Shown here: positions 14,487 through 64,000 of the stretch, piece by piece
Layout: every line of letters starts with the position of its first letter
Position numbering within the stretch: position 1 is the first letter of the stretch
Assembly: GCA_905178155.1 (NCBI GenBank)
Contig: CAJINV010000001.1
Coordinates: 12,197,832-12,261,831, forward strand
Direction: 5' to 3'
Length of the DNA: 64,000 nucleotides
Source of the DNA: Amoebophrya sp. A120
Taxonomy: Eukaryota; Protista; Dinoflagellata
Notes under the pieces: model-generated
What the model was told of the DNA's origin: nothing
Databases searched by the model: none
Seen by the model: only the letters and a program-made list of their open reading frames with translations
Program-made: the position numbers and the translations under genes

Positions 14487-17400
14487 ATGGGCGTGGTCGC
14501 AGAGCAGCTGGCTACCCTGCTGTACAAGGATCTGATCCTCCGGCGGCGGGCGCCTTTCGAGACATTTTGTCTGTGTCTTTGCCCGTGTTTGACGATTATT
14601 CTCGCCTGCAGTTCCTTCATCTTCATCGAAGACTTGCCCCATGTTGTGCCGTTCACAACAGAGGAGAACGCGTATCGTTACTTTTTGCTTACAGGGCACT
14701 GCTCATGTTGTTCAAGAAGAGGCAACTTTACATACAACGACATCATCAAAGTTTGATAATCGAGAAACTTTAACTTACATTTTTTTACAGTGCCCAAGCT
14801 CCGGTCGGCCCTTCCTCGACGTTCCTCTTCGACCCCTTCCCCCTCGATTGCGTTGCGGTCGACGCTATCAAATGCAAATATGTCTGGGTCTGGAACGATG
14901 CAAGGTTTGTCATGCACATTTTGCATGACTCCTGATGTCTGTGATGCATGCCGTAGCATCACAGATTTTGTGAGGCCTTCCTGATGCCTATATCGCATGA
15001 GAAATGCCCTCTCGCCCTGGCAAAAACTGGCCTTCTTTTGCTGTTCATGCAATACAAGTTTTTGTAGAATTCAGACGCAGCATCACAAGTTGCATCCTTC
15101 CAGTTCCAGACATATTTGCAATGCATAGACGCCGTCTCGCTGCTCGCACGCGGAGACATTGACACGGAGGGCAACGGCGGCGGCCCGATTCAGGAGGTCT
15201 CGATTGGGTTGAAGTACACGACCAATTTTGACTGCTTTCTCGGGGCGATCGCGAGCTACATTCCGCTCTGGAACATCATGGTCCGCCAGTTGCGCGAACG
15301 CCCCTCCTGGGTGCCGACGCCGCGGACGTTCGCTGTTATAGATGAGACGCCGGTGCCGCATGGCGGCACTGTGACACGGGGCACCAGCTTCGCGAACTAC
15401 ATGGAGAAACGGTACAACCAGAACATAGCCTTGGTCATGGTTTTCTACAACCTCACCGATTCCTGTTTCCGGAACGAGCAATTGCACTACGTGGACAAAA
15501 ATTTGAGCCCCTACGACGTCGTCCCTGTGTTTGGCTCGTCTGCTTCGGGGTCCAGCTCCACGTCGCCATTCGCCTCGCTGTTCGCCGCGAATGCGACGAG
15601 GAGGCAGTTGACTGTGAGCGAGAGTGGTGACCAGTTTGGGACGAGGGGGGAAGAACAAATGGGAACAGAATCTTCCTTGAACTACTTTGAGCGGCGCGAC
15701 GACATCCGAGAGCTCGCTGTGCCCCCGGGATCCACAGTGGACGTTTCGTCATTCTCCGGCCATGTCACGGACTTTCCGGTGAGCAATATCTACCAAGACT
15801 GTATCACCAACCGCCCGATGGAGTGCTTCAACGCCTGTTTTTTCCAGGACAACAGTTTCCGCACCAACGCGATTGCTGAGATCCAGCAGGCCATGTCCGG
15901 AAGCTCGGTGGTCGCGTCGACGTCCTCTTCGAGGCGGAATCTGGTGGCCGGTGAAGAAGATGTTAGCGAGGATGTGGTGGATTTCATGAAAAACATCGAA
16001 AGTGAATACCGGAAAAATCAACAGACCATGGCATTGGAAAAGAAGCAGAAAGAGGAGGAAAAAAGGCACGAGCTTCTTCAACAAATAGACGGCAATCAGT
16101 GCGCAGACCATGATCAACTATGGTTTCCGCGCAAGAACCCCTTTGACCTGGAAGCGCTGGCAGAGTTTCTCGAACAAACAGCGAAAGCTGTGGTCGACGA
16201 GGCACCAGAAGACGCGGGCTTCTTCTTCCAAGGACGGCTCAAACAAGGTACTGAAACAAGCAGAGTTGTCTCCAACAAGCGCACGCTGCAGAGTAGTTCC
16301 ACTACTTCGTCCGGCAACAGCGGCAACACCGAGCAAGTGGATTGCCGGTCGCTGACCTCCCCGTGCGAATGTGCGCGCCACCGCACCAGTCACGGCTGCC
16401 AGTGGCGGCAGGAGTCCCGACTCCTGCACGGCATGGGGCGGTGCCGCGCGGGCAACAGCCGGCGCAGCGACACGTCGTGCGCGGAGTGCTCCAACCAGGA
16501 GGGGTGTTTAGCCGTTGACTTGTGGGAGCGGCTTGGCGCCAGCCTGCCGCGCTTGTCTCCCGCCGTGCGGCAGTTTGGCGCGGAGTCGGACTTGGAGGAT
16601 TTTATCGCGAAAGTCAATTATCCGGGGGAGCGGACGGAGCAGTGGACCAACGGGGTGAACGGGCTCCTTGAGGATGTCATCGTTTCGGACAGTATCTGTG
16701 CCGCGGTCGTTTTTGCGGACAACGGCAACCGGGCGGTCATCCGGCCCAACGCGACAAGCTCCGCAGGGGTGCAATACGGGCTAGATACGTATCGCTCCGT
16801 GTCGCTCCGCTCCCGCCCAGGCAGCATGCAGGCCTATCAGCTCTCCGGTTTTATCGGCTCACAAGCGGTGCTGAACGACTTCTTGCAGTGCCGTAACGCA
16901 GTCGACATCAGCGACTGCTTGCCCGCCTCGAGGCAAATCGCGCAGCAAGTGCAGCAGCAACAGATGAGTGTAGGTACAACAGTGACGGCGCAACCAGAGC
17001 CGACGAAGAACTACGCCAGTCAAAACGTCTCTCTGATCTCCATGGGAAGCCCCGCGCACCAGCGCAACCCGGTGTTGCAGTACAGTGGTTGGCGTTTGTG
17101 GTCGCAGATGTGGATCTCGTTCTGCTTCCCGGTTTTAACCGTTGCGGGGAAGATTCTGCGCGAAAAGGAGTCGAAGATCCGGGACGGTATGCGGATGATG
17201 GGTCTCCGCGACGCGGCCTTCTACTTGGAAGATTTCGTGTTCAACGCGATGCTGGCGTTTCCGATCGCCCTGTGTGCAGTGATCGCGTTGAGCAACATGC
17301 CGCACATTGTGATCTACAGCGACCCGTTCTTCCTGTTCCTCGTGTTCTTCTTCTGCCTGTGGCACACGCTCTCCTTCGCGGTCTTCCTCACGTCCTTCTT

Positions 17401-20400
17401 CAGCAGCTCCTTGTTCGGGAAAATCGTTTGTTTTGGCATGGTGTTCATGAGCCGGTTGTTTCTGGAGTTGACCGACGGGGGCTGGACCACGAGCCAGATC
17501 CGGGCGCTGGGGCTGTTCTTTCCCAGTTGTGCGTTCAAATACGAGATGATCACTTGGTACAATTTGGAGATCAAGACCGACGGGCTGACCGCGGCAACCA
17601 TCACCTGGCGCAACGACAATTTTTCCGCGCAAGACGGTTTGATCGTGCACATAATCGGCATCTTCATGTACACACTGTTTTTCGCCTATTTCGACCAGGT
17701 GATCCCTACCGAGTTCGGCGTTCCGCAGCCCTGGTACTTTCCTCTCTCAAAAGTCTGGTGGCAGCAAACAGTGTTTGCGACTTTCAAAGGATCAAATACG
17801 AAAGAAGAGCAGACGTCGGCTGCGGGGGAAGTAGAAGAAGAGGAACTGGCAGATGCCACGACTATGGACCGGGATCCGACGTGTTTTGAGAAAAAAACGG
17901 AACAGCAACGCGACGCGGAGCGGCGCGGGGAGTGCGTGCAAGTGAAGAAGTTGCGGAAGGAATTTTTCGTCGACGGGCAAAAGATCGTCGCGGTCGACAA
18001 TTTTTCCACCACGGTCTACAAAAACGAGATCTACGTGCTGCTCGGGCACAACGGCGCGGGGAAAACCACGACGTTCTCGATGCTCACCGGATTGATCCCC
18101 ACCACCGGCGGGACGAGCAGCTTTTTCGGCAATTCCATGCAGTACCACTTGACGAACTGCCGGTCCAAAGTCGGGATGTGCCCGCAATTTTCCGTGCTTT
18201 GGCCGCAGGTGACTATCAACTGCAAAAGTGTATGGGTCTGGAAGAGTGCCAGACTTGTCATGCAGGTTTTCCATGACCGAAGAGGTCTGGTATGTAGGAC
18301 ATAGCATGACAGATTCTGTGAGCGTTCTATCATGTTCATGCCTATCCTGGATGAGAAACTGCCTCTCGATTAGGTCAAAAGTGGGCAGCTTTTGGCAATC
18401 ATGCAACACAGATTTTTTACATGATGCAGATTTAGCATGAGATGTTGCTTTGTTCCAGACCCAGACACTTTTACATTTGATAGTGACCGCGTTGGAACAC
18501 TTGGTCTTGTTCGCCATGTGGAAGGGCGTTTCCAGGGCGGACGCGTACCGCGAGGCCGAGGAACTTCTCCGGGAGCAAAACATGGATCACAAGAAGGACG
18601 CGCTCGCCCGCACGCTGTCGGGCGGGATGCGGCGGAAGCTCTCGCTCGCGATCGCCTTCACGGGGAATCCGGAACTGGTTTTCCTGGACGAGCCTTCGTC
18701 CGGGTTGGACAGCAGTGCGCGGCGGGAGATCTGGAACCTGCTGCGGACGCGGAAGGACAACCGGGTCATCATCCTCACCACCCACTACATGGACGAAGCG
18801 GACGCTTTGGGCGACCGGATCGCGATCATGTCGCAGGGCCGGATCAAATGCTGCGGCTCGCCGAACTTTCTGAAGAACGTGTACGGCTGCGGCTACAACT
18901 TGAGCTTCACACTGACCGAATCCGCCGTGGTCCGAAACAGCGGTGCGAGCCTGTTTTTCTTCCTGCAGGAGGTGCTGAAGCCGTTCCATGTGAAACTGCT
19001 CTCGGTTGCGGGGAAGGATTTACTGTTTCTAGTGCCCTTCGAGGCGTCCGCCTGCTTCGAAAAAGCGTTCGACCGAGTTGAGAAGTACCAGCAGGCGTTG
19101 AAGATTAAGTCGTGGAATTTGTACGTATGCAACCTGGAGGAGGTGTTTTTGAAAATCGCGTCGGACGAGGAGGTATTGCGCGCAAAAACTGCTTCCACGG
19201 TCAATCCCTCCATTCTGGACATGGGAACTAACAACACCGCACGCACCGCGCCTTTCGACGACGACGACGAGCACGCAAGGCTGACGGAGAAAACCGCGAT
19301 AAGCGAAGATGTTGAGGGTACTAGGCATCAAACCGCAGTGAATGAGCACTTCGACCTGCACCTTTCCGCGGGTGCGCACGCCGCAGACCACCACTTGGCG
19401 TCTGTCGTCAAAGGGTCGTCTGAAGTCGCGTCGCGCCAGAACAGCAAGGAAACCATTGAGAAGATTGTGAACGGCACCATGCTGGGCGGAGCCGGCGGAC
19501 GCGACAGCTTCGGTACTGTCGCGTCGCAAGAGCGGTACAGCGAGATCGTAAAGGCACTGGAGGAAGGAGGTGCTTCGTCGGGCGAAGAGCAGAACTTCGC
19601 CGGAACAAGAAGTGGTGCTGGCGTAGTTGTGACGCCTGTTGGTGTTGATGATCCATCCGCTGTTCATACTTCAACTTCCGACGGTGTAGTTTCTGCTTGC
19701 CAAGCGGAAGACCTGGCCGACCACGAGCGGGTTCCGACCCCGCCGGAGAAAAAATCTCCGTTCACTTCCGATCAGGTTCTACCCGAAGTGCTTGGCGTAC
19801 CGACGTCAGGTGGAGGTGGTAAGGACAAATTTTCGGCTGCAACGGGCGGAATGAAACACGGTACACTTACACACGGTGGTGACAGCATGCTCCAGTACAC
19901 GAATGCCGGGTTCTCAAGGCAGATGCAAGCCCTCCTTTGGAAGCGGTACTTGAACTCCAAGCGGGACTTCTGGACGACCTTGGTCCAGCAAACCTGTCCG
20001 GTGTTGCTGACATCGTTGTCGATCATTTTCCTCATCCTGAACCTGAAGGATTTACCCTACCGGCAGCTGACCTACGAAAATGACTACAACACGGACATGG
20101 AAGCTCCGGCGAACCGCTACATTGTGCCGGTCTCGTTTTCCTCAGACGACGTCGAGCAAAACGACTATCAGAGCGGCATTCCTCCCAAGGTGTACACGAC
20201 GCAAAAACCCGCTTTGGCATTGTGGCCGGAGAACCAGCCGTGCAGCACGAAAGGCGGGTGCCAACAAATCAGCAGCGGGCTGAGCACCTCCGCATTGCTG
20301 TCCGCGACGGATAACAGCGTCTCCCAGTCCGAGAACACGGCGTTCGTTATCGCCGGGAGTCAGTGCCCGACCACGCAGCAGGGGGTGTACAGTGGGGTGT

Positions 20401-23400
20401 TGGATTTCGTGTTCTCCGCCTTTCAGAACCAAGTGAACCCGCTGTTGGGTGGCGGCTTCGGCGGCGCCGCCGTGACTGCGGATGCAACGGCAACAACGAT
20501 GTTGAATACGACAGCCACGGTCACCGCCGCGCCGCTGGTTTTCGCGACTACGTCGGGTTCCTTCAGTACCAGCTCACTGGCGACGTCGCGGATCCCAACG
20601 GCGGAGCAGAAGAACAGCTCGATACGGTTTGTCTACGCACTGGAAGATCAGATCCAGTACCGCAAGCCAGATGAGTCGGCGTACGGGGGAGTGCTCCTTG
20701 CCGACAACCGGAATGTCTTACTACACGTGAACCACACGGGCTACCACGCCGCGCCGATCATGCTGCAATACTTCTACAACTACGTCGCGTCCACCGTGTA
20801 TGTCAAAGACCCAGCGACTGGCGTGGAGCAAACACTGCACCACGGCATGACTGACCTCGGGGTCCACCCGCTCCCCCAGACCGCGGACGAGAAGGACTTC
20901 CGCCTGCGGTTCCAAAGCTTCGCCATCGCGTTTAACGTCATGATCTCCTTCGCGTTTGTGTCCTGCTTCTCACTCGTTTTCGTCGTGATGGAAAAGGAGT
21001 CCGAGATCAAGGCGCAGCAGTTTATCAACGGCGTGGACATCCCCACCTACTGGCTCGCGCAGTACGTCTACGACTTTTGCACGTTTTTGTTCCCCATCAT
21101 GTCGCTGCTCATCGTCCTGCCCTTTCTGGAGGTCTGGTCCCTCGTCGGGGCGGACACGCTGCCCGTGTTCCTCATGCTCATGCTGCTGTTCGCGTTGGCG
21201 ATCCCGAGCTTCTTCTACATCTGCGCGCACGGGTTATGCATTGCAAAAGTATCGTACTCGTATAAATGCATTACAAATTTCCTCAGCATGAGAAAGAAAA
21301 TGCGGATTTGCCTTCAGAAAAAAGTTTGTGATGCAAGACTTGCATTTATTATACGAGTACGATACTTTTGCACAGGATACGGGTTCCGCACGGCCAATTC
21401 GGCCATGACCACGGCCTTGGTGATGAACCTGCTCGTCGCGACGGTTCTGTTCATCGTCACCTTCGTGTTCGAATTGATGCCGTTCGTGATCACGCGGAAG
21501 GTCGGCTACTACATGTCCGCGCTGTCCCGCATCTGGCCGGTTTTCACGTTCGGCGAGGGCGTGCGCCGGATGGCCATGGTCAGTTTCATTTGGACCCAAA
21601 ACCCGCCGGACACGATGACGGACTCCTACTACAGCGACTGCGAGGAAAAATACGACAGATTCGAGATCGGCGCGCACTGGTGCTCGCAGAGCATGTGGGA
21701 CAAGTTTGCCGCCGGGCAGGCGTTGACGATTTTAGGCCTGCAAGCGGTCTTCTACATCACGATCGCCATCATCATCGATTTGCTGCAAGAGGACGTGCGG
21801 TTTCGCCAGATTTTCTTCGAGCCCAAATTTGATCCGAGCGTGAACAAAACGGCAGAAATCCGAGCGCTGCGCGACCAGGACGTGGTAGACGAGGAGAACC
21901 GCGTGCACGGCATGCTGGCGCAGGGGCAGGGGGGACACATGATGACGCCGATGACCAGTACGGGAGGTGACCCTGAACAAGATCGAGATCATCCTGGGCA
22001 TCGACAACAAGTCGATCACGACCAGACCGCGGACGATCCAACCACGCGGACCACATCGAGCCACAACCATCGACCTGGTCAAGTCGCGTCGCTGCCGCAG
22101 ATAATTGACCCGGAACAAAAAGTGTCGATCTTCTTCAAGAACGTGAGCAAGCTGTTCAAAGTGAGCACGAAATCCACCGTGATGGGTGCCCCGGTGGTGG
22201 CAAGCGAGACCGGTAGCGGACAGGGGGTCACCCTGACCGGGGCGCCGGAGTTCAAAGACACCAGTTTCACCACCTTCGTGAAGGAAAGGTGCTGCTGTTG
22301 CTGCCCGTGTTTTCGGAAGAAGACCGAGGTCCGCGACGTGCACGCAGTGCGGGACTGCAGTTTCGCACTGCACAAGGGCGACGTTTTCGGGTTGCTTGGA
22401 GCCAACGGTGCGGGGAAAACCACGACGTTCCGGATGATGTGCGGCGTTACGGTGCCCGCGAAAGACCCCGACACGGACATCCGCATTCTCGGCAAGGACA
22501 TTTTCACCCAGCGCGCAGAGTGCCGCCAGCTGATCGGGTACACGGCCCAAGCCAACCCGCTGTGGATGGGCATGACGGTCCGGGAGCACCTGGAGTTTTA
22601 CGCGATGATCAAGGGCATTCCCCCGCACGAGCTGGCTCTCGTTGTGGAGAAGCAGATGCAGGACCTGGACCTGCTTTCCTACGTCACCAAGCGGGCAACC
22701 AACCTCTCCGGCGGGAACAAACGCAAACTCGTGATCGCCATGTCGCTCATCGGGGCGCCGCCCGTCTTGTTTTTGGACGAGCCGTCCGCTGGGATGGACC
22801 CGGCGGCGCGACGGAAGATGTGGAGCATACTCCACTACATCGCGACGAAGCGAAAGCGCAGCACGGTGATTCTCACCTCGCACAGTATGGACGAGGTGGA
22901 GGCGCTGTGTTCCAAGCTGTGCATCATGACCAACGGCGTGTTCCGCTGCATGGGGTCGCTCTCCCGCATAAAGGAACTGTACGGCAAGGGGTTCGACCTG
23001 TACGCCAAATTCGAGGAGCCGGAAGACGTGCGAATTAAGGCCGTCGTGCGCGAACATTTGATGACGACTGCCATGATAAACAGCACCGTTTCTACAGCAA
23101 CTTTGGACGACCAGCAGCTCGCGACCAAGACCGTTTCGTTGGAAGAAGCGCAGCAAATCCTTCTGGCAGTAGAGGACGTCCTCAAGCTGACTACATCAAC
23201 AGAGGCTGGTGATGCAATGAAACAAGAGCACACAACTTCAACTTCTTACGTCACAAGCGTAAAACAGCAGTTGCAGCAGATGCTAGTGGAAAAGAACTCG
23301 CCGTTTCCCCACGCGTCCCGCCTGTGGAGTAAGGAGGTGAAATCGAAGGACGACCTGAAGCGCATAAAGGAGGACCGGGTGCGGCTCCTCGCGCTTGGGG

Positions 23401-23852
23401 AATGGTTTTTGTTTGCGTGTTGGCGCATCCGCTTCGCCAGTTTCGTCCAAGAGCGTTTTGCCCACGCCCAGATATTGGAACAGAGGCAAAACGTGTTGCT
23501 GTTCCGGATCGACGCCACGGATTCCAGACGCGTGTTAGACAGTACCAAGAAAGAGGACGACATCGGCGATCACGGTAGTGGCGTGCCGCCGGTGGATGAA
23601 AATGCAACTACCACTGCCATTCCCCATGTGGCGGTAGACGACCACGAAGATGCCGCGTCGCGCATAACAAATCCCGATGAAGCCAGAGGTGCTAGTACGA
23701 GCGGAACGAGTTTCCTAGGTCCGCTGTTTGGACTTTTGGAGAAGCACAAATCCGAATTCCATATCATGGAATACGCAGTGACCCCAACGACACTCGAGCA
23801 AATCTTCAACCAGTTCACGTTGGCGCAAGTCGGAGAGGATGACACACTGTAG
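14487..23852 (+). CDS. Full-size ABCA-subfamily transporter (TMD-NBD x2), interrupted by one GC-AG intron (14696-14790) and three TIR/TSD elements
   Basis: Two NBDs: GHNGAGKTT/LSGGMRRKL/LDEPSSGLD and GANGAGKTT/LSGGNKRKL/LDEPSAGMD. ABCA hallmarks EKESKIRDGMRMMGL and TTLEQIF. Frame is continuous after element removal (e.g. WPQV-TALEHL). Confidence 0.95.
14866..15127 (-). mobile_element. TIR/TSD intron-like element E1, family A (262 bp)
   Basis: TATCAAATGCAAATATGTCTGGGTCTGGAA ... TTCCAGTTCCAGACATATTTGCAATGCATA. TSD GACGC at 14861-65 and 15128-32. Removal gives CVAVD-AVSLL. Interior is the reverse complement homologue of E9. Confidence 0.9.
18214..18482 (-). mobile_element. TIR/TSD intron-like element E2, family A (269 bp), in NBD1 of ABCA
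   Basis: TATCAACTGCAAAAGTGTATGGGTCTGGAA ... TTCCAGACCCAGACACTTTTACATTTGATA. TSD GTGAC at 18209-13 and 18483-87. Removal restores LWPQVTALEHL. Confidence 0.92.
21235..21379 (+). mobile_element. TIR/TSD intron-like element E3, family B (145 bp), in-frame and stop-free
   Basis: TATGCATTGCAAAAGTATCGTACTCGTATAA ... TTATACGAGTACGATACTTTTGCACAGGATA. TSD CGGGT at 21230-34 and 21380-84. Removal gives YICAHGFRTANSA. Confidence 0.9.
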
Positions 23853-42090: not shown

Positions 42091-42642
42091 TTTTTCTGCT
42101 GGTCCTTGATGTGTAGTGAACAGGACAAGAGATGAATCGACGTCGTCAAAGCCACAACTAAGATTTTCATGAAGCGAGTGATAGATTTTTTCACATACTC
42201 AGCAAAAAGTAGGCACAACGATGCCAAACAAAGCGAATCAACTCGAAGTAGAAGCAAGTTGCTACTCTAGAAGTAGGTGCGACGAAGCGACTTGTTGAAT
42301 GTTGTTCGGTCCCCCATCGAAGTAAGGGAGGGAAATCTTTGTTTTGTAGAGAGAGCATAGAGCAAATGCTCATTAGGAAGATCATGATCGTAACGGAGCG
42401 TGCAGGTCGTCCGGAAGAGAGAGCTCGTTTTCACCACGGACGAGGTGAATCTTGTTTGTCGCTAGCATTCATTCGGAATCGTGAACGTGCACGCCCAAAT
42501 TACAAGCTGACAGTGATGGATGAAGAAACAGTGTATGTAGAAGAAGAACAACAACTAAAATATCACGAGGGGTGCGCACGTTTAAATCATGACTGCATCA
42601 GAATCACCAAGTTCTGCTCAGAGACGTCCTCGACGTCTCGTC

Positions 42643-45600
42643 ATGGCGCGGCCACTCTCCAGGACGACCCTGTGGCGCATTTTCTTCGTGACATCACTAG
42701 TCTTCACCCCGACCGCCACTAGGCGGCGCATGTTGCGGCGGGAGAAGAGGCCCCAGGAAATCGAGCAAGAGCAAGACCAGGAGCACTTAGAGCATGAGCT
42801 ACCTGCATCCCCGGTTGGTGCGGCTCCTGCGACGGAGCCGCCATCGAGTCCTTTCCACTCGGCGACCGCCGCGGTCATGTCGTTTCTTCAGACCACGCTG
42901 TCTTCAATTACCCACAGCGCAGTAGCAGACGACGAAAAGGAAGACGGACAGCACAGCGAAACGTCTGGACAGACCACCACGAAAGGGGATGTGGACGAGG
43001 ACTCAGTGCAACCAGTACAAAACACAGGGGCTGTCAACCTGGACGAGGAAGAGGATGAGTCATTCAACAACGCTGCTGCTTCTACATCTTCGAAGACAGC
43101 ACACGACGAGCCTGCGACGTCTTCAGGGCGAGAAGCTAATCCGCAGAAGGAATTGTCTCAAGCAAGCGAGGGGACCGAGTCTTCATCAAGCACAGATAAA
43201 GCTGCCTCCACGGACGACAACAAGGTGCAAGATTCACGAGTAATACCCAACGAAGAAAGTGGAAAGGTATCGAAGGAAAAAAACAATGGATTCTCGCCGA
43301 CTGACGGCAAGAAAGCCAGTGCCAGCAGCAGCAGCGAAGATAGTTGGAACACTCACGAAACAGCAACAGTAGATTCTGATAAAAAGACGCACGGAGCTCC
43401 AACTCAGCAACAGCAGGGAAGCAAAGACGAGGTGTCATCATCTACGAGAAGAGAAGACACTCAACCACACGAAGAAAGGAACAGCCCAAGCAGCACTACC
43501 GCGACAGCCACTACCACCGAGGATCCGGCACCACATGAGTACACGCCGGAGGAGCTCGGGGAAGCCGATATGCACTACGAGGACCCGGAAACATTTTACT
43601 ATTCGCGGTATGGCTATGGGAGTGTCAGGATTGAAATCGTCAGAGTTGAAATAGTTTGTCATGCATAAAATCTATACCACTTGGACCCCCAGTTTCCAAT
43701 CGGCGCATGGCAAATTTTCCTGGCCTCTGAAGCAAGTCTGTCATGCTGTTTAGGGCAAGAGGGTTCCCCCCTGTGATGCTAGCCAGCAACCCAATTTATG
43801 ACTCTTGCCAACCCTATAATCTGCTTCCTTTGCGTCCTGTGCAATAGAGTCAGTCTTTGTGTCGCATTTTATGCATGACAAATTATTTCAACTTTGCCGA
43901 TTTCAAACCTGGCACATTCATAATGGCAACGGGTATACGGAGGACGACGACGACGGGTGGGTTGACGAGCTCGAGGCGCAGTCCGATATCGACAGCACGG
44001 GCTCCTTTTTGGAACGAAAGAAAGTCACCGAGGAACGCAAAGAACATCAAGGCACCGCGGCAAATGCTGCAGCCCCCGTTACAACGGTGGATGCGGCGAA
44101 AAAGCCGAAGAGCCTGAAGAAACTGAACCAGGAGGCTGCGGACCTTGCTCGGGAGGCCTCCAGCATCATCCGTCTCAGAGAGCAGATGCACATGGGGAAC
44201 AACCTCGCCCTGTACGCGCGATCCGACCCGGCACTGTGGAAGCGCAGAGTCCCGGAGAGCGAGTCGATCCGTTCCCTGCTTTACGAGATGGGGTTCCCCA
44301 TTCGGGACGTGTCCGCCCTCACGCAGAATTTGAGCTGCAACCGGGACCTGAGCAAGAAGCGGCAACGGCTGGTGTTTGCGACGAAGCTGATCGGCCGGGA
44401 AGCGGTTGACCAGGGCAAAACCACGGCGGCCGTGGCAACTTTGGAAAACAACGTGGAACGGTTGCAAACCGAAGTGCGCCCGAATTACAAGATTGCGGAC
44501 GAAGAAGACAACGACCTGCGCCAGTGGCCGCAGAAGATGATGTTCGACAGCTTCACGGACTGGCTGAACAAAGCCGAGAAACCGGTGGTAGAGTTCAAAA
44601 AAGCGATGAAGGTGAACGCGGAGAAAATCCTCTCTTCCCGGCTGCAGGCGAAGTGCTACGGCTACACGCTGCTGAAGCACCCAAACAAGATGTATTGCCT
44701 CATGTTCACGCCCGACAACTTCGTCCACTTCACGCGGCGGAGCAACAAGTTCAAAACGGCGAATTTGCAACAGCTCGAGCACTACCGCCAGATGGCGTCC
44801 GCGCAGTACGACTGCGACAAAAAGGTGCTGGGGCTCGCGCACGACATTTTCCAGGACCAGGTCCGCACCTTGCAGAAGATCCGCAACAACATCGACAAAT
44901 ACCAGCGACTCCACGAAATCAGCGGACGGAAGTTCATCAACCTGATGAACGCCGTGCGCAGCAGGGACGATTCGTCCACCGGCGCGGTGAGTTTGCGGGA
45001 CGGGGAGCAGGTGAACCTGGCGGAAAACGCGGCCCAACTGGTCGGTTTGTCCGAAAACATCCGCGACGACGGAGTTACCAACATGGTGGAGGACCACGTG
45101 CAGCACGAGGGCGCGCGGTTGCAGGCCATGTTCTCCGGTGACACGCACCGCGTGTACGCCTGCAACAAAATCGACTGCGAGCCGGTTGCCATCCCGGGTT
45201 CGAACGGCAAGAAGCTGAAGATGTCGGACGTGAAGCGGTACGCCGCGCTGTGGACCGGCATCAAAACGCCCGTGGTCGAGCTGGGGTTGACGAAGGTGGT
45301 CCGGGACCCGGCGACGGGGAAGTTGCAGTACACGCCCAGTTATGAACTGCAAAAGTATCGTACTCGTATAAATGCATTACAAATTTCCTCAACATGAAAA
45401 ATTTGTAGTGCGGATTGACCTGCTTAAGAAAAGGATTTGCAATGCATGATTGCGATACTTTTGCATAGGATACCAGTCCGGACGACGTTGACGAGGAGGG
45501 GGTGCCGGTGGACCTCGACACGCCGAACGTCATGCTGATCGTGTACCCGCGGAAAACCATGAAGACCGGGCAGGCGTGGAATGTCTTGCAAAATTGGTGG

Positions 45601-47478
45601 AAAAAACGCTCCCCGCTGGAAACGGACTTCGAAGGCAGTCCCGGGGGCGAAGAGTCATTTGTGGAAGTCGTGGGGGAGCAGGAGAAAGGAGAGGAAAAGG
45701 AGCAGATGAATCCTGCTTCGTTTCCGTTAGCAATTACGTCACCCGACCCAACCACAGATGGTAGTGGCGACACCGATCCTGATGAAGGAGAAGCTGCGGA
45801 AGACGAAGAAGATGATGGCTCGGCTGGTCGGAAAGTCAGCACCGGTGGCTTCGCGTGGGATAATGTCGATCTGCGGGCAAGTCATGATCATGCAGACGAC
45901 CAATCTTCTTCATCTTCAACCACACATCCGTCATCCATGCTGGAAACCGCGGTGAAGCAGTCAAGCAGCAATAGTGACCTTGAGAAACTGCTTCGCGAAT
46001 TCGAATCAGAAATGCAGGCGGCTGCGAAGGAAACTGGAGCGAAGGAATCTTCTTCCAAGAAGCAGAAAGCTACAAGAGCGAAATCTGGTTCATCCCAATC
46101 GCCAAACGAGTCTGCAGATCCTACGAAGAACGCAGCGGGAGATGCAAACAGGGAGGCCGGCGGTGATGCTCGTCCGGCAGGCGGCATGAAAGCTGCAAGC
46201 AAATCTCCTGCTGATAAATCTTCTGAACCTGATGAAGGTTCCCCTGCGGAGATTGGCGGTGACGCAGACAACTCGGCTGAACAAGACCAAGACGGAGAGC
46301 TGCCAGATGGCTTTGGCACCGATGAAGACGACGCCGGCGAAGATGCAGTCGAGACCGACGCTATGGTGGACGAAGACTCCAGCATCGAGCCCACGGGCCA
46401 GCCGCAGACCAGTCAAAAGGACTGGACTGTCGAACTGCACACGACGTCAAGAACGCGCAAAAGCAAAGGAACGGGTGGAACATCATTTCTCGAGGAAAGC
46501 AAAAGCAAAACCGACCGTGCTCGTCCCTCCAGTGCAGACCACGTCGCAAAAGATGGACCTGAGTCGCGACCACAAGAGAGGAGAGCGGAGGAGCATAGAA
46601 GTCGCTCCTTGAACGAATCTCCACAAAGCCTACCTACTCCCGGACTTGCAGATCTGATCGACGACGACGTTTTTGACTACACCGCGATTTTTTCTCCCGA
46701 GGGTGTCCGCGTGTTGAAACCCGTGGTGACACATGTACGCAATAGCATGGAAGTCGAAAAAAAGAAAATGAAAGATGAGACTTCTGCGCCGATGTTGCAA
46801 GAAGAAGAAGTACTAGAGAGGAGCAGTTTAGCTTCGTCAACTTCTTTTCTGCAAGAAGGCAATAAGGACGCTGCGACGCCTCCGGCAAGTGATGAAGATG
46901 CATCTTCAACTTCTACTACTGCCACTAGCAAAGAATCGTCTGAGACGCAGCACCATGCAGAGGAAGCAGCAGCATCTCAACAGCGCATTGCTCCTCGCTG
47001 GTTCGCGCATGTCGACAACGAGTTGCGCACAGGAAGAGATCTCGTTGGCGGAGCACAAAGCGAACAAGCACCTGGTAGCAATACCAGGAAAAAAGTAGAG
47101 GAGAAATTTGACCAGCTTGGGGACGAGGCGGTGAAGTTGAAAGAGGAACACGAGAAAACCTTACGAGGTTCGACGCAGGACGGTGCTGTGGCAGCACTGC
47201 TGGATCTCGGGAGCGCGTTCGAGCAAGAGGAGGGGGCGGCAGGTGAACTACTGCAAGCCGACCAATATCAAAACCCAGCGGACAACAATGAACCTCATAT
47301 TGATAAAGCACTTCCTGTGAATTCAAATTCACACTCCAAGCACAGCGGAAATAGCGACGATGGAGCGGCGACTGCTCTCACGCCCACAACTTCTAGCGAC
47401 GATGTAGTTGACGGACAAAAAGAAGAGAACGACCACGCAAAAAAAACTGCTGATCCCGATGAGAGCTCAACTTTTTGA
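42643..47478 (+). CDS. Large putative secreted protein (low-complexity ends, globular core) interrupted by two TIR/TSD elements
   Basis: Three ORFs (42589-, 43859-, 45502-) fuse in frame after removing E6 (SRYG-NGYTED) and E7 (YTPS-PDDVDE). Hydrophobic N-terminus LWRIFFVTSLVF. Confidence 0.8.
43615..43922. mobile_element. TIR/TSD intron-like element E6, family D (308 bp)
   Basis: TATGGGAGTGTCAGGATTGAAATCGTCAGAGTTGAAATAGTTTGTCATGCATAAAAT ... ATTTTATGCATGACAAATTATTTCAACTTTGCCGATTTCAAACCTGGCACATTCATA. TSD ATGGC at 43610-14 and 43923-27. Confidence 0.9.
45341..45472 (+). mobile_element. TIR/TSD intron-like element E7, family B (132 bp)
   Basis: TATGAACTGCAAAAGTATCG ... CGATACTTTTGCATAGGATA. TSD CCAGT at 45336-40 and 45473-77. 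Interior is similar to E3. Confidence 0.9.
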
Positions 47479-48143: not shown

Positions 48144-48144
48144 C
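48049..48144. repeat. (GCAC)24 microsatellite
   Basis: Tetranucleotide array with one GCCC variant; intergenic. Confidence 0.97.
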
Positions 48145-52798: not shown

Positions 52799-52850
52799 AG
52801 ATTTTAGCGCTAAAGAAGAACGCTAGATTTTAGCGCTAAAGAAGAACGCT
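52799..52850. repeat. 26-bp perfect tandem duplication containing the palindrome TTTAGCGCTAAA
   Basis: AGATTTTAGCGCTAAAGAAGAACGCT x2. Confidence 0.85.
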
Positions 52851-53462: not shown

Positions 53463-56400
53463 ATGCAGGTCCTCGACCCCGATGGTGACAGCGACCCCGG
53501 GGACGATTCGGACTTCAGACCCACCGGTTTTCCGGCCGCCCGCGAGCGCAGCAGCGGAGCAGACGGCGACGAGAATTTGTATCATGTGAAACTAAAAATT
53601 TTTCACACAGGAGGTGGTGGTACAACAACATTTTCCGGTTCCTATGCGGTGCAACCGAAACCACCCGGACAGCAGCTCGTCCAGCAGGACCAAGAGCCGT
53701 TGTTCCAGCGCATCGAGATTTTGGAGGTCGCCGTGAGTAGCTACGAGGACCTGGCGGAGTTTGTGCGGACGCACCTGCAGGACTGGCACTGCGAGTGGCA
53801 GATGCTGTCGGGCGCCAACGTTCCCTTCACCGAGGACCTGCTGTACTCCCGGCTCTCCAGCCGCCGGCTTCCCGTCTTGGTGTTCGTGCGCAAGGTATCC
53901 TGTGCAAAAGTATCGTACTCGTACTGATTGCAAATATGCATGACAAATCTCCTTCCTAGTAAGGTAAAACAGCATTACAAATTCCACTTTTCTTCTTGCC
54001 AAAATTTGTGATGCAAGTTATACTAGTACGATACTTTTGCAATGCATACGAGGCCGCGAGCCTGTACCAGCGGGAATTGCAGGAGGTGGTGGCGCGCGCG
54101 GAAACCAAGCTGCTGGAAAAGCTGCAGGACGACCAGGAGGGGCGGGAATTTTACCTGAAAACCATGGAGGCGCGGGTGCAGGAGGCCGAGAGGGGCGTGG
54201 CGGACCTGAGCGACCTGTTCACGCTCCCGCCGCGGTCGCCGTCCGCGAAAAGTGTGTGGTTCGTGGTGTCCGCGGAGCTATTGATTCTGCTGGTGTTTGC
54301 GGTCTGGGTGGTGAAACTGTCCGTCGCGCGCCTGGACAAGGACGAGATGAGCGTGCGCCACTGGGTATCAAATGCAAAAATGTCTGGGTCTGGAAGGATG
54401 CGAACTTGTGATGCGTGTTGCGGATCATACAGAAATCTGTGTTGCATGACTTGCAAAAGCAGGTCCCCATTTCTAGCCATGCCGAGGGGGCATTTTTCAT
54501 GCAGAATAGGCATCACCAAGGGGCTGCAGAACCTGTGATGCTAGGCCCTGCATTCGAGACTTGGCGGAGCTTGGAAAAACTGCATGACAAATCTCAGAAT
54601 CTTCCAGACCCAGACATTTTTGCATTTGATACTGGGGGCAGCGGCTGAACCGGTCGCTGAACGAGCTGGAGGTACTACGGATTGCAAATATGTCTGGGTC
54701 TGGAAGAATACAAACCTGTGATGCGCATTTCAGAACACAGAAAAATCTCTCATGCATAGGTAGCAAAAGCTGCCCAAATTCTGTCACCAAAATGGGGGAT
54801 TTGTCATGCGGATTCGGCATTGCGGAAGCTTCTCGAAGCCTGTGATGCTAGAGCTTCCATGCCAGACTTTCTGTGTCATGCAAAAACAGCATGACTCTTC
54901 CAGACCCAGACATTTTTGCAATCCATAGGTGCAGAGTGCGAACAACTTCACCCTGGCTTTTGGCTTGCTCGAAACGGACAACCGAACCCTCTCGCGCACG
55001 GTGAACACGCTGAACGTGACGACGACTGCGTTGAACATCTCGGAGACGCAGGTCGCGCAGTTGGGGACCGCGCTGAACACGAGCCACGCGAACGCAACCC
55101 GTCTTGCCGTCGCGGAAAGGTTTTGGAAGCAGGATAGTCTGGCAGCGCGAACGGAATTGAATGCAACAAGTGCCGAGGTGTCCTCGCTGCAGATCCGGCT
55201 TCGGGCGTCGGAGGCCGAGATTCTGCGGCTGCAAAGCGCCCTGCAAACCGCGCAGGCGGGGGAAAGCGCGCTGGGAAGCAGGCTGAATGTCTCCTACAGT
55301 GAGCTGAACAACACCCGAGCGGCCCGGTCCGATTTGCAGCGTGCGCTCGCGGACTCGCAGGGCTTGATCGCGCAGCTGCGGGGGAAGGAGGGCCAGGAGC
55401 AAGCTAAAGTTGCAAATTTGACACAGGAACTGCAGCGACGGGAGACGGCGGATGAAGGCATCCGCAGCAAGCTGGCAGCGACGGAGAAGGCGTTGCAGGA
55501 CACAACAGGCAAGTTGGGCAATATGACACATCTGAAGGACGTCCTGCAGTACCAGCTGAGTTTGCTGACAAGAGACCTCCGAGACACGAAGTCGCAGCTA
55601 GGGAAGGAGGTCGCAAGAGACCGTACCTTGGAAGGGCAGGTCGCGACGCTACAGAGCGAACTCGATGCAAGTCGGAGCCAAAATGCCGATTTGATTGCGG
55701 AAGTTGCGGCCGAAAACCGAACGCTGCAAGGCGAAGAAGCTGTGTTGCGGCAAAGAAATACGTCGATCGCAACGACGGAGAAAGAACTGCAATCCGCACA
55801 GCAAGCGAACGCCGGCCTTAGGCGCAGTCTGAATGTCAAAAAGCAACAGCTCGCAAACGCAACCGAAAAAGTCGCGCAGGAAAGGGCTGACGCGGAAGAG
55901 TCCGAGAACTCACTGGAATTGTCTCGAACCAAGCTGGGTCTGGCGGAGAACGAAATTAGCACTTTGCAAGCCACTCTGCTATCGTCGCAGAAGAACGCGA
56001 CTCGTTTGCAAACCGCAGTCAACGCCGAGGAGGTCCAGGACCGCAAACACCTGAATGCGTTGAGCACTACGCAAGCCTCACTTGCCTCCTCTCGCGCAGA
56101 AATTTCCAGCCTAAACGGCGCATTGGCCTCCGCAAACGGGAACGCGACCGCGGTAGCGAGGGAAGAGCAGGCTGATCAGACGACAATCAGCGATCTCCGG
56201 GCCAGACTCTCCGCCGACGTCGGGAATGCGGCCGCATTGCGGACGCAGTTACACGACAGTCGAACCCGGTCGCAACAGCAGATCCAAGCCTTGCAGGCCA
56301 AACTTGCGCAGTGTGAGAAGCAGAAATCCTCGACAATTATTCCGCCGACGCCTTTGACTAGTACGTCTTCAACGACGACGAGCACAACAACACTACCATT

Positions 56401-56674
56401 CCCGCTCCTCGGTCTTCCGCCAAAAGAAAAGATTCCCTCAGCCGAACAAATAAATGGGCTCTCGAAAAGTAGAACAGCATCCGTAGTCGAGGAAATGCTC
56501 GAGCTCTTTCGCTCGCCCACTGTCTTCTTGGGTCCCGAAGCTAGATGGAGCAGCATATTGCGCGGCCAAAGTGGAGGAGATGCCTATGACGACCGCGTTA
56601 GCAAAACAAGAGGCAGCTGGATTGGCGGAGATGAACCAGATGCCCATGGCCAACAGCTTGCTCCGTTGAAGTAG
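53463..56674 (+). CDS. Single-TM long coiled-coil protein interrupted by three TIR/TSD elements
   Basis: ORF pieces fuse in frame after removing E8 (VRK-AASLY), E9 (RHWG-QRLNRS) and E10 (ELE-VQSAN). TM segment VWFVVSAELLILLVFAVWVV; heptad-rich C-terminal region with many N-x-S/T sites. Confidence 0.8.
53896..54048 (-). mobile_element. TIR/TSD intron-like element E8, family B (153 bp), inverted relative to E3
   Basis: TATCCTGTGCAAAAGTATCGTACTCGTA ... TACTAGTACGATACTTTTGCAATGCATA. TSD CAAGG/CGAGG (1 mismatch). Can be read as a GT-AG intron 53895-54052. Confidence 0.9.
54366..54631 (+). mobile_element. TIR/TSD intron-like element E9, family A (266 bp)
   Basis: TATCAAATGCAAAAATGTCTGGGTCTGGAAG ... 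CTTCCAGACCCAGACATTTTTGCATTTGATA (perfect 31-bp TIR). TSD CTGGG at 54361-65 and 54632-36. Confidence 0.95.
54676..54927 (+). mobile_element. TIR/TSD intron-like element E10, family A (252 bp)
   Basis: TACGGATTGCAAATATGTCTGGGTCTGGAAGA ... TCTTCCAGACCCAGACATTTTTGCAATCCATA. TSD GGTAC/GGTGC. Can be read as a GT-AG intron 54672-54928. Very similar to E12. Confidence 0.92.
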
Positions 56675-59543: not shown

Positions 59544-62500
59544 ATGTTGACCCGGCTGCAATTGGTGGTCGGGTCCGCGGTGGTACCGCTCGCGGGGGCT
59601 ACCACGGGGGCCACGACGCCCACGGTGCTGGCGAAGGCGGAGGTGATGCCTTCGTCCGTGACGGAAAAGTCCATGGAGTGGACGAAGGACTCGGACCAAC
59701 CGACGCCCCAGTTCATGGCCATGCAGTTCGACGTGATGAACGTGAAGAATCCCAGCGGGGACATTTACGTGAACATGCCCGGCTGCCCCGCGGGCAAGGA
59801 AATGGTGAAGAAGATCAGCATCTCGTACGAGGGCACGTTTCAACAGAGCGACAAAGACAGCAACGGCAAGATCAACGTGGTGGACAAGTGCTACCAAAAC
59901 TTCTACCTGGACACCGCCACGAAGCCGGCTGCCGGCTACACGGAGTCCCAGTGGGGCGGTTTCATGATGGACGAGAACGGCAACCAGCTCAAGGGGTGCA
60001 AGGGCATGATGATGATCGACGAACTGCCGTCCATGTGCTGTACGCCGCCCACGCTGGCGGCCGGCCAGACCTGTACCCCCGGCGAGGAAACGTACGCCGT
60101 CGAGCTATTGTGAGGAAGAATCCCCCCTCCCCATATCGAAAAGGAAATTTGTGATGCTGATTGGTGGCCACAAATCCGCTCTGTCTTGCATATGGGGCAA
60201 TTGGGAGCCGTTTGGCGCATTCCACAGCCAATCTGTGATGCGCTTTTGCATACTGCAAAGGTGTCTGCCATGCCTAACTGCTAGCCTGCTGCATACCCAA
60301 TCAGCCTGAGGAAGTGCCTCCAAGCGCTTTCTGCAATACAGTGGTGAATTGTGTACAGAAATCCAGCAACAGAAATTTCCTTTCTTCTATGGGGTAGGGG
60401 CTTTTTTCACTTTGATACGAGCACATGACCTTCATGGGCGACACCTCGGTCGCCAAGTGCGTGACGGGAAACTACAAGAAGTACCAAATGTAAAAATGTC
60501 TGGGTCTGGAAGAATGCAACTTGTAATGCGTATTTCAGCACACAGAAAGGTCTCTCATGCATACGTAGCAAAAGCTCCCACTTTTTGCCAGCAAAATAGG
60601 GGACTTGTCATGCGGATTCGGCATTGCGGAAGGTTCTCGAAACCTGTGATGCTAGAGCTTCCATGCCAGACCTTCTGTGTCATGCAAAAACAGCATGACT
60701 CTTCCAGACCCAGACATTTTTACATTTGATAAGAAGGGGGGCATGACCATCGGCGACGCCGCCACGGAACTGGACTTCACCTCGGGCAACCCGACGAAAT
60801 TCAAGGACTTGTGGGGCACCTTCGGGAAGGAAACCAGCGGCATCGCGCAGATGTTGGGCGTGGGCATGGAGATCGAGGACTGCGGCTGCGTCAAGCCGCC
60901 CACCGCGCAAGCATCGCAGGGCAGTGGGAGCACCACCGTCACCTGCAAGAGCGGAAGCAGCAGCGGCGGCCAGGGGCAAGGAAATACCCAGCAAAGTGGT
61001 ACACAAACGTCCAGCGGAATGCCCTCGACGGGGACGCGTGCATTAGAAGCTGCTGCTCCGAAAATCATGGCCAAACACGATCTCCAAAAAGCGACGGGTG
61101 CGGCTGCTGGAGCGGCCGCGGCCCCGGCACCACGACACGTGCGCCGCGCAAAGGTCGCAAACATGTGGCAGCAACGTAAATTGGCCCGCGAGCGAATGGT
61201 GCGGAACCGCAAGGAACGGATCGAGGCCCAACACGCGCACAAGTACTATCGGGAGAACCCGATCATGTGGCTTGCGGACGGTCTGCAGCTGCGCCGCCAA
61301 CTGCGCGAAGCGAGGAAGTTCCCGAACGTTTTTCGTGCCCGCGCACTGACGGCCAGTGCTTCAGGGGGGCAGGCGGTGGACGTGGGCGAGACCATCATCA
61401 CCCGCGAGGAGTGCAAAAAGCAGAAAAAGGAGGCCATGCGGGGCGGTGGCGGTCACGGCGGACCGCCCGGTGGCATGCCCGGTGGGCCCGGACAAATGGG
61501 TCAGTCGCATCGCCGGCGTCTCGCAGAGCGGCACTTGACGCGCAAGGAGAAGGAGGCCCTCACGGCCGCGGCGCACCGCCTCGTCCGGCGAAACCTGCAA
61601 CGCCAGGGTCGCAAGGGCAAGAGCTTCGTCTACAAGAAGCAGTCTGTGCGCGCTGGCATTGTGCCGGCGTCGACCGGTGTCCACCGTCGTCAACTGACGT
61701 CCTCGTCGTTCGGAGGTACCATGCAGCCAGGCATGGATCCCAATGCGATGGGAGGCATGGATCCTAACGCGATGGGAGGCATGGATCCTAACGCGATGGG
61801 AGGCATGGATCCCAACGCGATGGGAGGCATGGATCCCAACGCGATGGGTGGCATGGATCCCAACGCGATGGGAGGCATGGACCCCAATGCAATGGGAGGA
61901 CAAGGGCCGAACATGGGCCCCAACGGGATGGGTGGAGGCATGGATCCTAACGCGATGGGAGGCATGGATCCCAACGCGATGGGAGGCCCACCTGGTGGGG
62001 GCCCCCCGGACATGGCAAACATGGACTTTGACGAAATGGACCCCGACGAAATGATGGCGTTGGAGTTTGACTCCACAAACGTGCAGAGCGCTGGCTTCAA
62101 GCCTCCGCCGGGAATGGAGAACGAAGTGGATGGGGCTAGCTTTAACATGAACGCGGAAGGCGAGATGGTGATGACCACGGCGTCCGGCGTATCAAAATGA
62201 AAAATCCCCCCTCCCCATATCAAAACGAAGTTTGTGATGCTGGATTTGCGTACACAAATGAGATTTGTTTTGCTGGAGAGGAATGCAGGCCTATATCAAG
62301 CCTGAGTAGAGAGGTTTTGGCCTAGTCGCTTAGCATGAGAAACGTCTGCGCTGTAGGCCTACTAGCGACACAAACTGCCTGCATCATGCGGCGGAGCCTG
62401 TGGAATTGCCTTCTTGCATGACAGAGATGATTTGTGGTCGCAAATCAGCATTGCAAATTTTCTGCGGCGTACCTTTTCGATATGGGGAGGGGGGATTTTT

Positions 62501-64000
62501 CACTCTGATACGGCGAAGAGGTGATCATGGATGCGCCCATGGGCCCCTCCGAGGCGGCTATCGCCGTGGCGCCCTTCGTATGCATTGCAAAAGTTGTAAC
62601 TCGTACGACTACTAGTACTAATTGCATTCATGCCTGACAGATCTGGTTGCCCCTTACCCAATTCAGCATTACTGTTCCTTCGAAATAAAAACTTGTAAAT
62701 CTAAATGCGATTTATAAATTATAAATCGCATTTAGATTTACAAGTTTTTATTTCGAAGGAACAGTAAAATACTAGTTGTGCGATACAAGTTTTGCAATGC
62801 ATAGTTCGCGAGCGACGGGGTGGCCAACTTCTTCAAGTTTTTCAACCCGACCACCTCCGGTCGGTACCCGTTCGGGGAGAACGAGGATCCGACCACCAAG
62901 TACACGATTTTCGTGGACGCGGAATCCCGGTCCGTCAACGACACCACTACCGGCTTCGTCCCGAAATGCAAGTATGGCAGCGAGTTCTGGGTGAAACTGG
63001 GCCCCGGGGACCGGACGGGCGGCGCCGGATGGACCGCGGGAACCAGGACCCCGCATTTGGGGGGCAATGATTTTGTCAAGCTTGTGCGTGTGGACGGGGT
63101 GGACTGGAGCTGCATTTCCAGCTACACCGACGCAGTTCCAGAAGAAGTTCTCGCGCTCGACATCGTCATGGCCCTGGAGGCGACCTCGGGAGCGGTGCCT
63201 CCGGTGACCACCGGGAGCAAGGTGCAGGTGGAAGTGATCAACAAGTCTGGCTCCACGGAAATTCACGAGATCATCATCGGCGGCAACCAGGGCGTGAAAA
63301 ACTACAACCAGTTGCGCATGGTCATCGAGAAGAAGCAAGAGATGGTGTGGGACGGCCTGATGGGTGACATGATGGAGGACATGTTTATGTCTGACCTCGG
63401 CATCGATCCGATGGCCATGGGAGCAGACCCAATGATGGCAGCAGACCCGGGCATGTATGCACTGCAAAAGTATCGTACTAGTACAAATCGCAATACAAAT
63501 TGGTTCAGCATTACAAATTAAATTTGTAATGCGGATTTACCTAACCAACTAGATTTGTAATGCATAACTGCGATTACTACGAGTACGATACTTTTGCACA
63601 GGATAGCATGGCATCGGCGGCGATGTATGGGGCCGCCGGTGCTGATCCTTCGGCCAAGTCCACCCCCAAGAAGGCGAAGTCCTGCTTTCGCGGCTCGGTG
63701 ATGGCGCAGGTGGTGAAGCCCAAGTGCTTCCCGACCTGCGCGCGCACCGGCGTGACGCGCGCAGCCAACACCGAGGAGGCCACCGCAATCGCGGCCCTGA
63801 AGGGGGACGAGATTCCGTTTGTGTTGCTGAAGAAGCGATACAATCTGAAGACGCTGAAGGAGGACAGCTCCTTCGCGGCCTCGCTGCCGGCGGCGTTCAA
63901 GGAGGGAACGTGCACGGCGCGCGTGGGCGGGCTCGTGGACGCCAACGGCGGAGCCATCTTCCGCGAGAAGGTCTCCGTGCCCTTCAAACCGCCGTCCTGC
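59544..64000 (+). CDS. Met/Gly-rich putative secreted protein, interrupted by five TIR/TSD elements; runs off the window
   Basis: Frame is continuous after removing E11-E15 (AVEH-MTFM, NYKK-GGMT, ASGE-EVIM, APFA-SDGV, DPGM-ASAAM). Hydrophobic N-terminus, Cys-containing globular parts. Confidence 0.8.
60106..60417. mobile_element. TIR/TSD intron-like element E11, family C (312 bp)
   Basis: TATTGTGAGGAAGAATCCCCCCTCCCCATATCGAAAAGGAAATTT ... AAATTTCCTTTCTTCTATGGGGTAGGGGCTTTTTTCACTTTGATA. TSD CGAGC at 60101-05 and 60418-22. Confidence 0.88.
60482..60731 (+). mobile_element. TIR/TSD intron-like element E12, family A (250 bp)
   Basis: TACCAAATGTAAAAATGTCTGGGTCTGGAAGA ... TCTTCCAGACCCAGACATTTTTACATTTGATA. 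TSD AGAAG at 60477-81 and 60732-36. Confidence 0.93.
61730..61984 (+). repeat. Coding 24-bp tandem repeat, (GMDPNAMG)x7 + x2
   Basis: GGCATGGATCCYAAYGCGATGGGA units at 61730-61897 and 61937-61984. Confidence 0.95.
62190..62510. mobile_element. TIR/TSD intron-like element E13, family C (321 bp)
   Basis: TATCAAAATGAAAAATCCCCCCTCCCCATATC ... GATATGGGGAGGGGGGATTTTTCACTCTGATA. TSD CGGCG at 62185-89 and 62511-15. Confidence 0.93.
62579..62803. mobile_element. TIR/TSD intron-like element E14, family B-like (225 bp), with an internal perfect palindrome
   Basis: TATGCATTGCAAAAGTTGTA ... TACAAGTTTTGCAATGCATA. TSD CTTCG/GTTCG (1 mismatch). Confidence 0.88.
62669..62767. repeat. Perfect inverted repeat, 49-bp arms with a 1-nt spacer
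   Basis: TTACTGTTCCTTCGAAATAAAAACTTGTAAATCTAAATGCGATTTATAA-A-TTATAAATCGCATTTAGATTTACAAGTTTTTATTTCGAAGGAACAGTAA. Confidence 0.95.
63456..63605 (+). mobile_element. TIR/TSD intron-like element E15, family B (150 bp)
   Basis: TATGCACTGCAAAAGTATCGTACTAGTA ... TACGAGTACGATACTTTTGCACAGGATA. TSD GCATG at 63451-55 and 63606-10. Confidence 0.93.

Follow-up and report, generated by a model that had tools for sequence, protein, structure and literature searches.

Introner elements of Amoebophrya sp. A120 are lost from transcripts together with one copy of a 5-nt duplication and without a splice-site dinucleotide rule

A stretch of 64,000 nucleotides (nt) from Amoebophrya sp. A120 (contig CAJINV010000001.1, positions 12,197,832 to 12,261,831 of the forward strand; referred to as the window) contains 15 short elements, E1 to E15, that interrupt the exons of five genes. 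All nine elements that were bridged by transcript contigs were missing from these contigs together with exactly 5 further nucleotides, and none of the nine allows a GT-AG intron in any register. This exact loss of the element plus 5 nt (element+5) very probably occurs at the RNA level. The elements are almost certainly the introner elements already published for this organism (Farhat et al. 2021; PMC7789003), and the class itself is therefore not new. The original prediction had named the same class, and genome, end motif and repeats agree.

The elements are 132-321 bp long and consist of mirror-image ends, starting with TAY and ending with ATA, around a variable interior, with a 5-bp duplication on the flanks. 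The first three bases are TAT in 13 elements and TAC in two, while the last three are ATA in all 15. Terminal inverted repeats (TIRs) of about 20-56 bp were measured, and the number, sizes, termini, TIR lengths (roughly 20-55 bp) and distribution over five genes agree with the original prediction. A 5-bp direct repeat had been claimed for every element. It is perfect in 12 of them, but E8 (CAAGG/CGAGG), E10 (GGTAC/GGTGC) and E14 (CTTCG/GTTCG) have a single mismatch (4/5). A repeat scan recovered 14 of the 15 elements; E11, which has a weaker outer repeat, was read directly from the sequence. When a perfect 5-bp repeat and at least 13 of 20 terminal matches were required, 11 sites were found in the real window versus 1, 0, 1, 0 and 2 sites in five block-shuffled windows.

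According to interior likeness the elements belong to at least four families: A (E1, E2, E5, E9, E10 and E12), B (E3, E7, E8 and E15), C (E4 and E6) and D (E11 and E13), while E14 has only B-like ends. E10 and E12 are 90% alike. The GC content of the elements is 33-48%, compared to 52% for the whole window, of which they cover 5.6%. The end motif TAY-N7-AAA is present at 12 of 15 left ends and 13 of 15 right ends, and at 111 of 129 ends on each side if the related loci described below are included. A U-rich stretch lies about 10-15 nt upstream of most right ends. With their flanks the elements are predicted to fold into hairpins of -44 to -155 kcal/mol, in most of which the TAY end would be base-paired. 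Retention breaks the reading frame, by a stop codon or a shift, in 14 of the 15 cases; only E3 has one stop-free frame. No further copies were found in the window with 225 related elements as queries, and no Rfam families were detected in it. The interior of E14 contains a perfect palindrome with 49-bp arms (62669-62767, 99 nt), and E14 is still excised precisely.

Contigs from eight RNA or DNA runs were compared with two 20-kb stretches (35300-55299 and 44001-64000) that contain 12 of the 15 elements. Run X8 is RNA on record and comes from another study. Runs X3, X4 and X6 were taken as RNA by guess, supported by a depth that follows the genes and by the loss of three ordinary GT-AG introns in X6. 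E4 to E7 and E11 to E15 were all skipped exactly as element+5 (Table 1), E12 and E14 also in X8, and the removed lengths matched those expected from the original prediction at all nine testable joints. One X6 contig lacked an ordinary GT-AG intron as well as E4 and E5, with a depth of 9.71 at all three joints. Unbroken stretches of contig over the junctions reached 4759 nt. Among the rows listed for the eight runs, no contig bridged E8 to E10.

Run X1 resembled DNA, its depth being even, at about 45, in genes and spacers alike. Contigs of this run passed 22-36 bases into the elements without a break at the border, and the three skip joints listed elsewhere were absent among the joints counted. 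A total of 30,385 X1 records aligned, stacked on the elements, which are repetitive sequence. As the elements are kept in the DNA-like run and skipped in the transcript contigs, their loss occurs after or during transcription, as far as contig data can show. Raw reads of RNA run X13 left the unique DNA of the window uncovered. About 110 of them match family A ends (60485-60529 and 60700-60731), all with one identical foreign flank; apparently one locus elsewhere has an element that its RNA retains.

Table 1. Elements E1 to E15 and their host genes in the window. Removed lengths are given in nucleotides; aa, amino acids.
Feature	Position	Length or strand	Family or gene	Removal	Evidence or content
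E1	14866-15127	262 bp	family A, ABCA gene	267 nt removed	junction in annotated protein P0001
E2	18214-18482	269 bp	family A, NBD1 of ABCA gene	274 nt removed	junction in P0001; gap-free vs six ABCA homologues
E3	21235-21379	145 bp	family B, ABCA gene	150 nt removed	junction in P0001
E4	35561-35866	306 bp	family C, reversed relative to E6	311 nt removed	X6 contig joins 35555 to 35867
E5	35940-36192	253 bp	family A-like	258 nt removed	X6 contig joins 35934 to 36193
E6	43615-43922	308 bp	family C	313 nt removed	43609 joined to 43923 in X4 and X6
E7	45341-45472	132 bp	family B	137 nt removed	X3, X6 and X4 join 45335 to 45473
E8	53896-54048	153 bp	family B, reverse orientation	GT-AG possible one base left of element	P0121 and homologue P0122 keep left base (Lys)
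E9	54366-54631	266 bp	family A	271 nt	P0121 is the element+5 product
E10	54676-54927	252 bp	family A	GT-AG possible four bases left of element	P0121 is the element+5 product
E11	60106-60417	312 bp	family D	317 nt removed	X3 record 11: 572 nt gone, 317+255 over E11 and E12 (piece coordinates)
E12	60482-60731	250 bp	family A	255 nt removed	X8 record 17 joins 60475 to 60731; also X3 record 11
E13	62190-62510	321 bp	family D	326 nt removed	X3 joins 62184 to 62511
E14	62579-62803	225 bp	family-B-like ends	230 nt removed, left base kept	X3 and X8 join 62574 to 62805
E15	63456-63605	150 bp	family B	155 nt removed	X3 joins 63450 to 63606
Host gene 1	14488..23852	+	ABCA transporter (P0001, 2851 aa)		E1-E3; ordinary GT-AG intron 14672-14790
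Host gene 2	35355..37697	+	519-aa protein, weak DUF384 match		E4, E5; ordinary GT-AG intron 36472-36685
Host gene 3	42589..47478	+	1480-codon frame		E6, E7; no Pfam matches in two exons scanned
Host gene 4	53463..56674	+	841-aa protein P0121		E8-E10
Host gene 5	59544..64000	+	frame leaves window		E11-E15

With the elements plus 5 nt deleted, four of the genes had open frames (2795, 1480, 853 and 1079 codons) and the gene with E4 and E5 was opened as well, in agreement with the restoration of the frame predicted for every element. The frame by itself is blind to whether 5, 2 or 8 additional nucleotides are deleted; the transcript contigs discriminate between these cases. Two annotated proteins of Amoebophrya sp. 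A120 represent such products. P0001, which was retrieved at 100% identity with the middle exon of the ABCA gene, is identical to the element+5 product over 2789 residues without a mismatch and at all three junctions and differs only in its initial residues, which precede an ordinary intron, and P0121 is identical to the product of the gene with E8 to E10 in 841 of 841 residues. The site of E2 corresponds to about residue 1113 of P0001 and falls within the Pfam ABC_tran stretch (1042-1184), in agreement with the location in the conserved NBD1 of the ABCA transporter given previously. At the protein level, homologous proteins are uninterrupted at the positions of E2 and E8.

For comparison, 136 public loci with a total of 363,674 bases were retrieved with one family A end pattern. 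They have no unique DNA in common with the window and may come from another strain. In these loci, scans that required TA ends yielded 231 TA..TA pairs whose flanks matched at four or more of five positions, 200 of them perfectly. Over 450 candidate pairs, the exact adjacent repeat was 5 nt long in 200, 4 nt in two and 6 nt in none. A matching partner was found for 92 of 102 family A ends. Two pairs that appeared long (498 and 2618 bp) were rejected, since they falsely combined neighbouring elements. Enough flank was present in 191 pairs, and 114 of these were oriented by a coding model, which was right for 14 of the 15 window elements. Among 62 oriented elements that could be assigned to a family, 34 had the reference orientation and 28 the opposite one. 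The composition of the duplication was that of the background. The median nearest-neighbour identity of the sampled copies was 87%, in a sample too small for dating.

Several copies in these loci were unusual. Four longer elements of 457-972 bp (L015 2814-3270, L026 571-1051, L027 2815-3445 and L043 2501-3472) have family ends and perfect 5-bp repeats; their interiors contain additional, apparently unrelated DNA with frames of at most 118 codons, possibly captured sequence. Direct repeats of 8 bp and 7 bp flank the family-type elements L039 2829-3108 and L092 76-330, respectively. L084 301-552 (2/5) and L107 301-570 (0/5) are intact family A elements with an unrecognizable duplication, which has perhaps decayed at non-coding sites.

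The two family C elements are similar (70%) only when one of them is reverse-complemented, with an interior score of 162 versus 53 in forward comparison and a shuffle maximum of 61. Because E4 and E6 are members of one family in opposite orientations and both are lost from + strand genes, removal is independent of orientation. As the ends are mirror images, this is equally expected whether a hairpin or a symmetric end motif is recognized. Sliding the junction through the repeat gave GT-AG for E8 and E10 only and GA-AG for E5, as predicted; GC-AG was not obtained for any element in the window, and E5 also permits AT-AC in another register. An acceptor rule suggested by the window sequences only, in which T never follows the element and the ends would read A-G/C/A, was dropped since T follows 22 of the 114 oriented elements. 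An ab initio search of ordinary introns for a donor consensus was discarded since it put introns with RNA evidence at wrong positions.

The mismatched duplications limit the position of the cut. Transcripts of E14 retain the left base at repeat position 1, so that the cut would lie 0-4 bases to the left of E14. For E8 the position is 0-3 bases to the left, according to annotation and not reads, since one homologue and the annotated protein carry the residue of the left base. A perfect repeat is not required for removal, because E14 with its 4/5 repeat is precisely removed. One-mismatch repeats made up 29 of 229. With either copy kept, mismatches that fall in called reading frames were silent in 11/14, 11/14 and 11/17 cases under three settings, and in two of three cases in the window. 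If one copy were free, a silent fraction of at most 0.43-0.46 would be expected (p = 0.013, 0.011 and 0.058; post hoc and from a small sample). This excess showed no trend with the position in the repeat. It is a hint that the mRNA can contain either copy and is regarded as a lead.

The explanation we favour, to which we give an about even chance, is that the elements leave the pre-mRNA through a relaxed spliceosome that is guided by the predicted terminal hairpin. Insertion, presumably by transposition, would generate the observed 5-bp target duplication, which can have any sequence. Transcription would run through the element, and its ends would pair as predicted by folding. Two cuts, together 5 nt outside the element, would then leave one copy of the duplication and restore the coding sequence at any orientation and length; the product of this step was observed for nine elements, and the evidence points strongly to the RNA level. 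The likeliest register would lie one base to the left, so that N-TAY would mimic the local donor G-TAY, and the acceptor would be placed by its distance from the base of the hairpin and not by AG. Ordinary donors read GTAY in four of four verified introns and in six of eight found by eye, compared to 9.7% of the GT sites in the window, and the element start TAY equals this donor minus G. A cut one base left of the element is compatible with both E8 and E14. The loss of ordinary introns and elements from the same transcript also argues for the spliceosome. A near-complete spliceosome, in which U1 was not detected, has been described for A120 (PMC7789003), and transposon-derived non-canonical introns of Fritillaria are spliced by the spliceosome (review PMC11282704).

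Several points weigh against this explanation. GT-AG was possible in any register in seven of the 114 oriented elements, compared to 7.0 expected, and neither G before the element nor AG at the matching acceptor was enriched among these 114. TAY may simply be the end of the transposon, and its predicted pairing could hide it. A single fixed cut does not predict the excess of silent mismatches. The contigs are derived from cDNA and give neither strand nor rare forms, with three of the four transcript runs assigned as stated above, and a direct RNA joint was obtained for nine of the 15 elements, E1-E3 and E8-E10 being represented by annotated proteins. Lariats and circles were not seen in the contig data, nor was a transposase among the elements examined.

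A possible but doubtful alternative, which corresponds to the original prediction taken in its strong form, is a homology-directed joining without the spliceosome, in which the hairpin would align the two 5-nt copies and the crossover could fall anywhere in the duplication, so that either copy would reach the mRNA. The join could be made by a nuclease-ligase or by recombination of RNA, or it could arise when the RNA polymerase jumps. Such joining is consistent with the absence of a dinucleotide signal in every register, removal in both orientations, the repeat length fixed at 5 nt and the excess of silent mismatches, and GT-AG was possible in 3 of 16 mismatched versus 6 of 113 perfect repeats (p = 0.083). 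However, E14 is precisely removed in spite of its mismatch, with a single joint form among those listed in two runs, where contigs drop rare forms. The rate of mismatched repeats is also not clearly below neutral decay, the silent excess is independent of the position in the repeat, and no candidate enzyme was identified. It is unlikely that tens of thousands of exonic transposons are joined out independently of the spliceosome, with insertions instantly silent and both copies under coding selection. The original prediction of an excision that reads the hairpin and the direct repeat rather than GT-AG was thus borne out as far as GT-AG is concerned, but not for the reading of the repeat, as judged from E14, nor for a non-spliceosomal route. 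Less probable again is a spliceosome that reads motifs only, TAY at the 5' end and the U-tract plus ATA at the 3' end, with incidental pairing. Positions 1-3 and 11-13 of the ends are the best conserved, with T, A, T and A, A, A dominant and 96-100% paired, and the symmetry of the ends would account for orientation independence without a hairpin. A transposase site would nevertheless give the same conservation, in unrelated families pairing remains close to 90% as far as position 27, and E4 and E6 are removed although family C lacks AAA at positions 11-13.

Two other explanations place the loss outside RNA processing, and both appear very improbable. Reverse transcriptase may switch templates across hairpins between short direct repeats, an artefact that would leave the real mRNAs different from the contigs. 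No paper on this artefact was found in the literature searched. All data are cDNA, and strong predicted hairpins with short repeats are the expected substrate, but contigs that cross the junctions over such lengths indicate that the skipped form dominates, and retention would wreck 14 of 15 frames, yet NBD1 is gap-free against its homologues at E2. The elements might instead be excised from DNA in the expressing stage like the internal eliminated sequences of ciliates, which would agree with their TA ends and exonic position. Against this, the X1 contigs cross the exon-element borders at single-copy depth and lack the three listed skip joints, and the residue left is a 5-nt copy and not TA.

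All genes examined lie on the + strand, matching the co-oriented blocks reported for Amoebophrya. Ordinary GT-AG introns at 14672-14790, 36472-36685, 40618-40818 and 41296-41496 are mutually unrelated and all begin with GTAY; further candidates were spotted by eye in 1-5500 and at 30920. The long frames 48947-52177, 32113-34443 and 27367-29208 are free of elements, compared to two to five elements in each of the five host genes, so that the insertions look clustered. Pfam matches were obtained for a caspase/metacaspase domain (32113-34443), a polynucleotide kinase 3'-phosphatase (57166-58338) and, weakly, a WW domain (38443-40650). The gene with E11 to E15 contains at about 61720-61990 a tandem coding repeat in which a Met/Gly-rich unit of eight residues occurs about ten times.

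The anatomy of the elements suggests that they are likely non-autonomous DNA transposons. They have the features of miniature inverted-repeat transposable elements (MITEs), being short, non-coding and present in high copy number, with TIRs and a constant 5-bp duplication. This part of the original prediction is supported by anatomy only, as no transposase was found. No element with a long frame that could be an autonomous copy occurred among the 231 pairs in 364 kb, including the four true longer elements with their frames of at most 118 codons. Two end patterns gave no match to viral contigs. IS3EU/GingerRoot elements (PMC10045372) share the TA..TA termini, but their duplication is usually 6 bp, whereas in the present set 200 repeats were exactly 5 nt and none 6 nt. 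Membership in this group was therefore rejected on duplication length. The hAT elements, which have 5-bp duplications, are an alternative candidate.

What is added here is the removal of one family in both orientations, the lack of a splice signal in the duplication, a bounded cut, and TAY as GTAY minus G. Any mechanism is thus constrained to remove element+5 in both orientations without a dinucleotide rule, and E8, E10 and E14 provide natural rulers for the position of the cut. A spliceosome that acted as the cutter would have to accept every first base and every acceptor; any other cutter would represent a new route of intron removal from mRNA that neutralizes transposon insertions. The literature searched, outside which Roy et al. 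(2023) may bear on the question, contained no solved removal mechanism.

In comparison with the A120 introner elements of Farhat et al. (2021; PMC7789003) there is no difference in kind. These comprise 29,850 repeated introns of about 240 nt that are supported by RNA and have non-canonical borders, inverted repeats and direct repeats of 3-5 nt (5 bp in the example) but no internal transposase, and their end motif was given as TAT followed, after seven variable positions, by three or more A, with borders called 'variable/unknown'. Inverted repeats, 5-bp repeat, motif, repetition and loss without GT-AG were all found here. Element orientation, a fixed element+5 rule and the use of mismatched repeats as cut rulers are not treated in the part of that text that was searched, while its border logos (Fig. 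3, S19-S25) may already contain part of the constraints added here. Gozashti et al. (2025; PMC12130899) described A120 introners as partly TIR DNA transposons, including one family with TIRs and an integrase-like frame. Such a family would be a plausible type of mobilizer; among the loci examined here none of the elements carried a frame of this kind.

Introners of Micromonas, Aureococcus and Symbiodinium (PMC9860276) are likewise non-autonomous, have TIRs and target-site duplications (TSDs) and create introns without a change in the mRNA, but they carry or co-opt ordinary splice sites, which the present elements do not: GT-AG was possible in two of 15 cases in the window and at no more than the expected frequency in the related loci. 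The product retains a 5-nt copy and no TA, and X1 keeps the elements, in which they differ from the eliminated sequences of ciliates. The MITE-derived introns of Fritillaria borealis (PMC11282704, PMC13326754) are similar in being bounded by TIRs and TSDs without GT-AG and are removed by an adapted spliceosome; they prefer AG-AC and AG-AT ends, whereas the elements of the window prefer no dinucleotide in any register. Nonconventional introns of euglenids (PMC12501133) also have ends closed by a hairpin and repeats at their borders and coexist with GT-AG introns. They require, however, CDG and CHG motifs whose spacing is fixed, with a purine as the next base behind the intron (5'-N3CDG ... CHG-N5-6 followed by a purine), while the ends of the Amoebophrya sp. 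A120 elements are long and resemble those of transposons, and their duplication is fixed at 5 bp.

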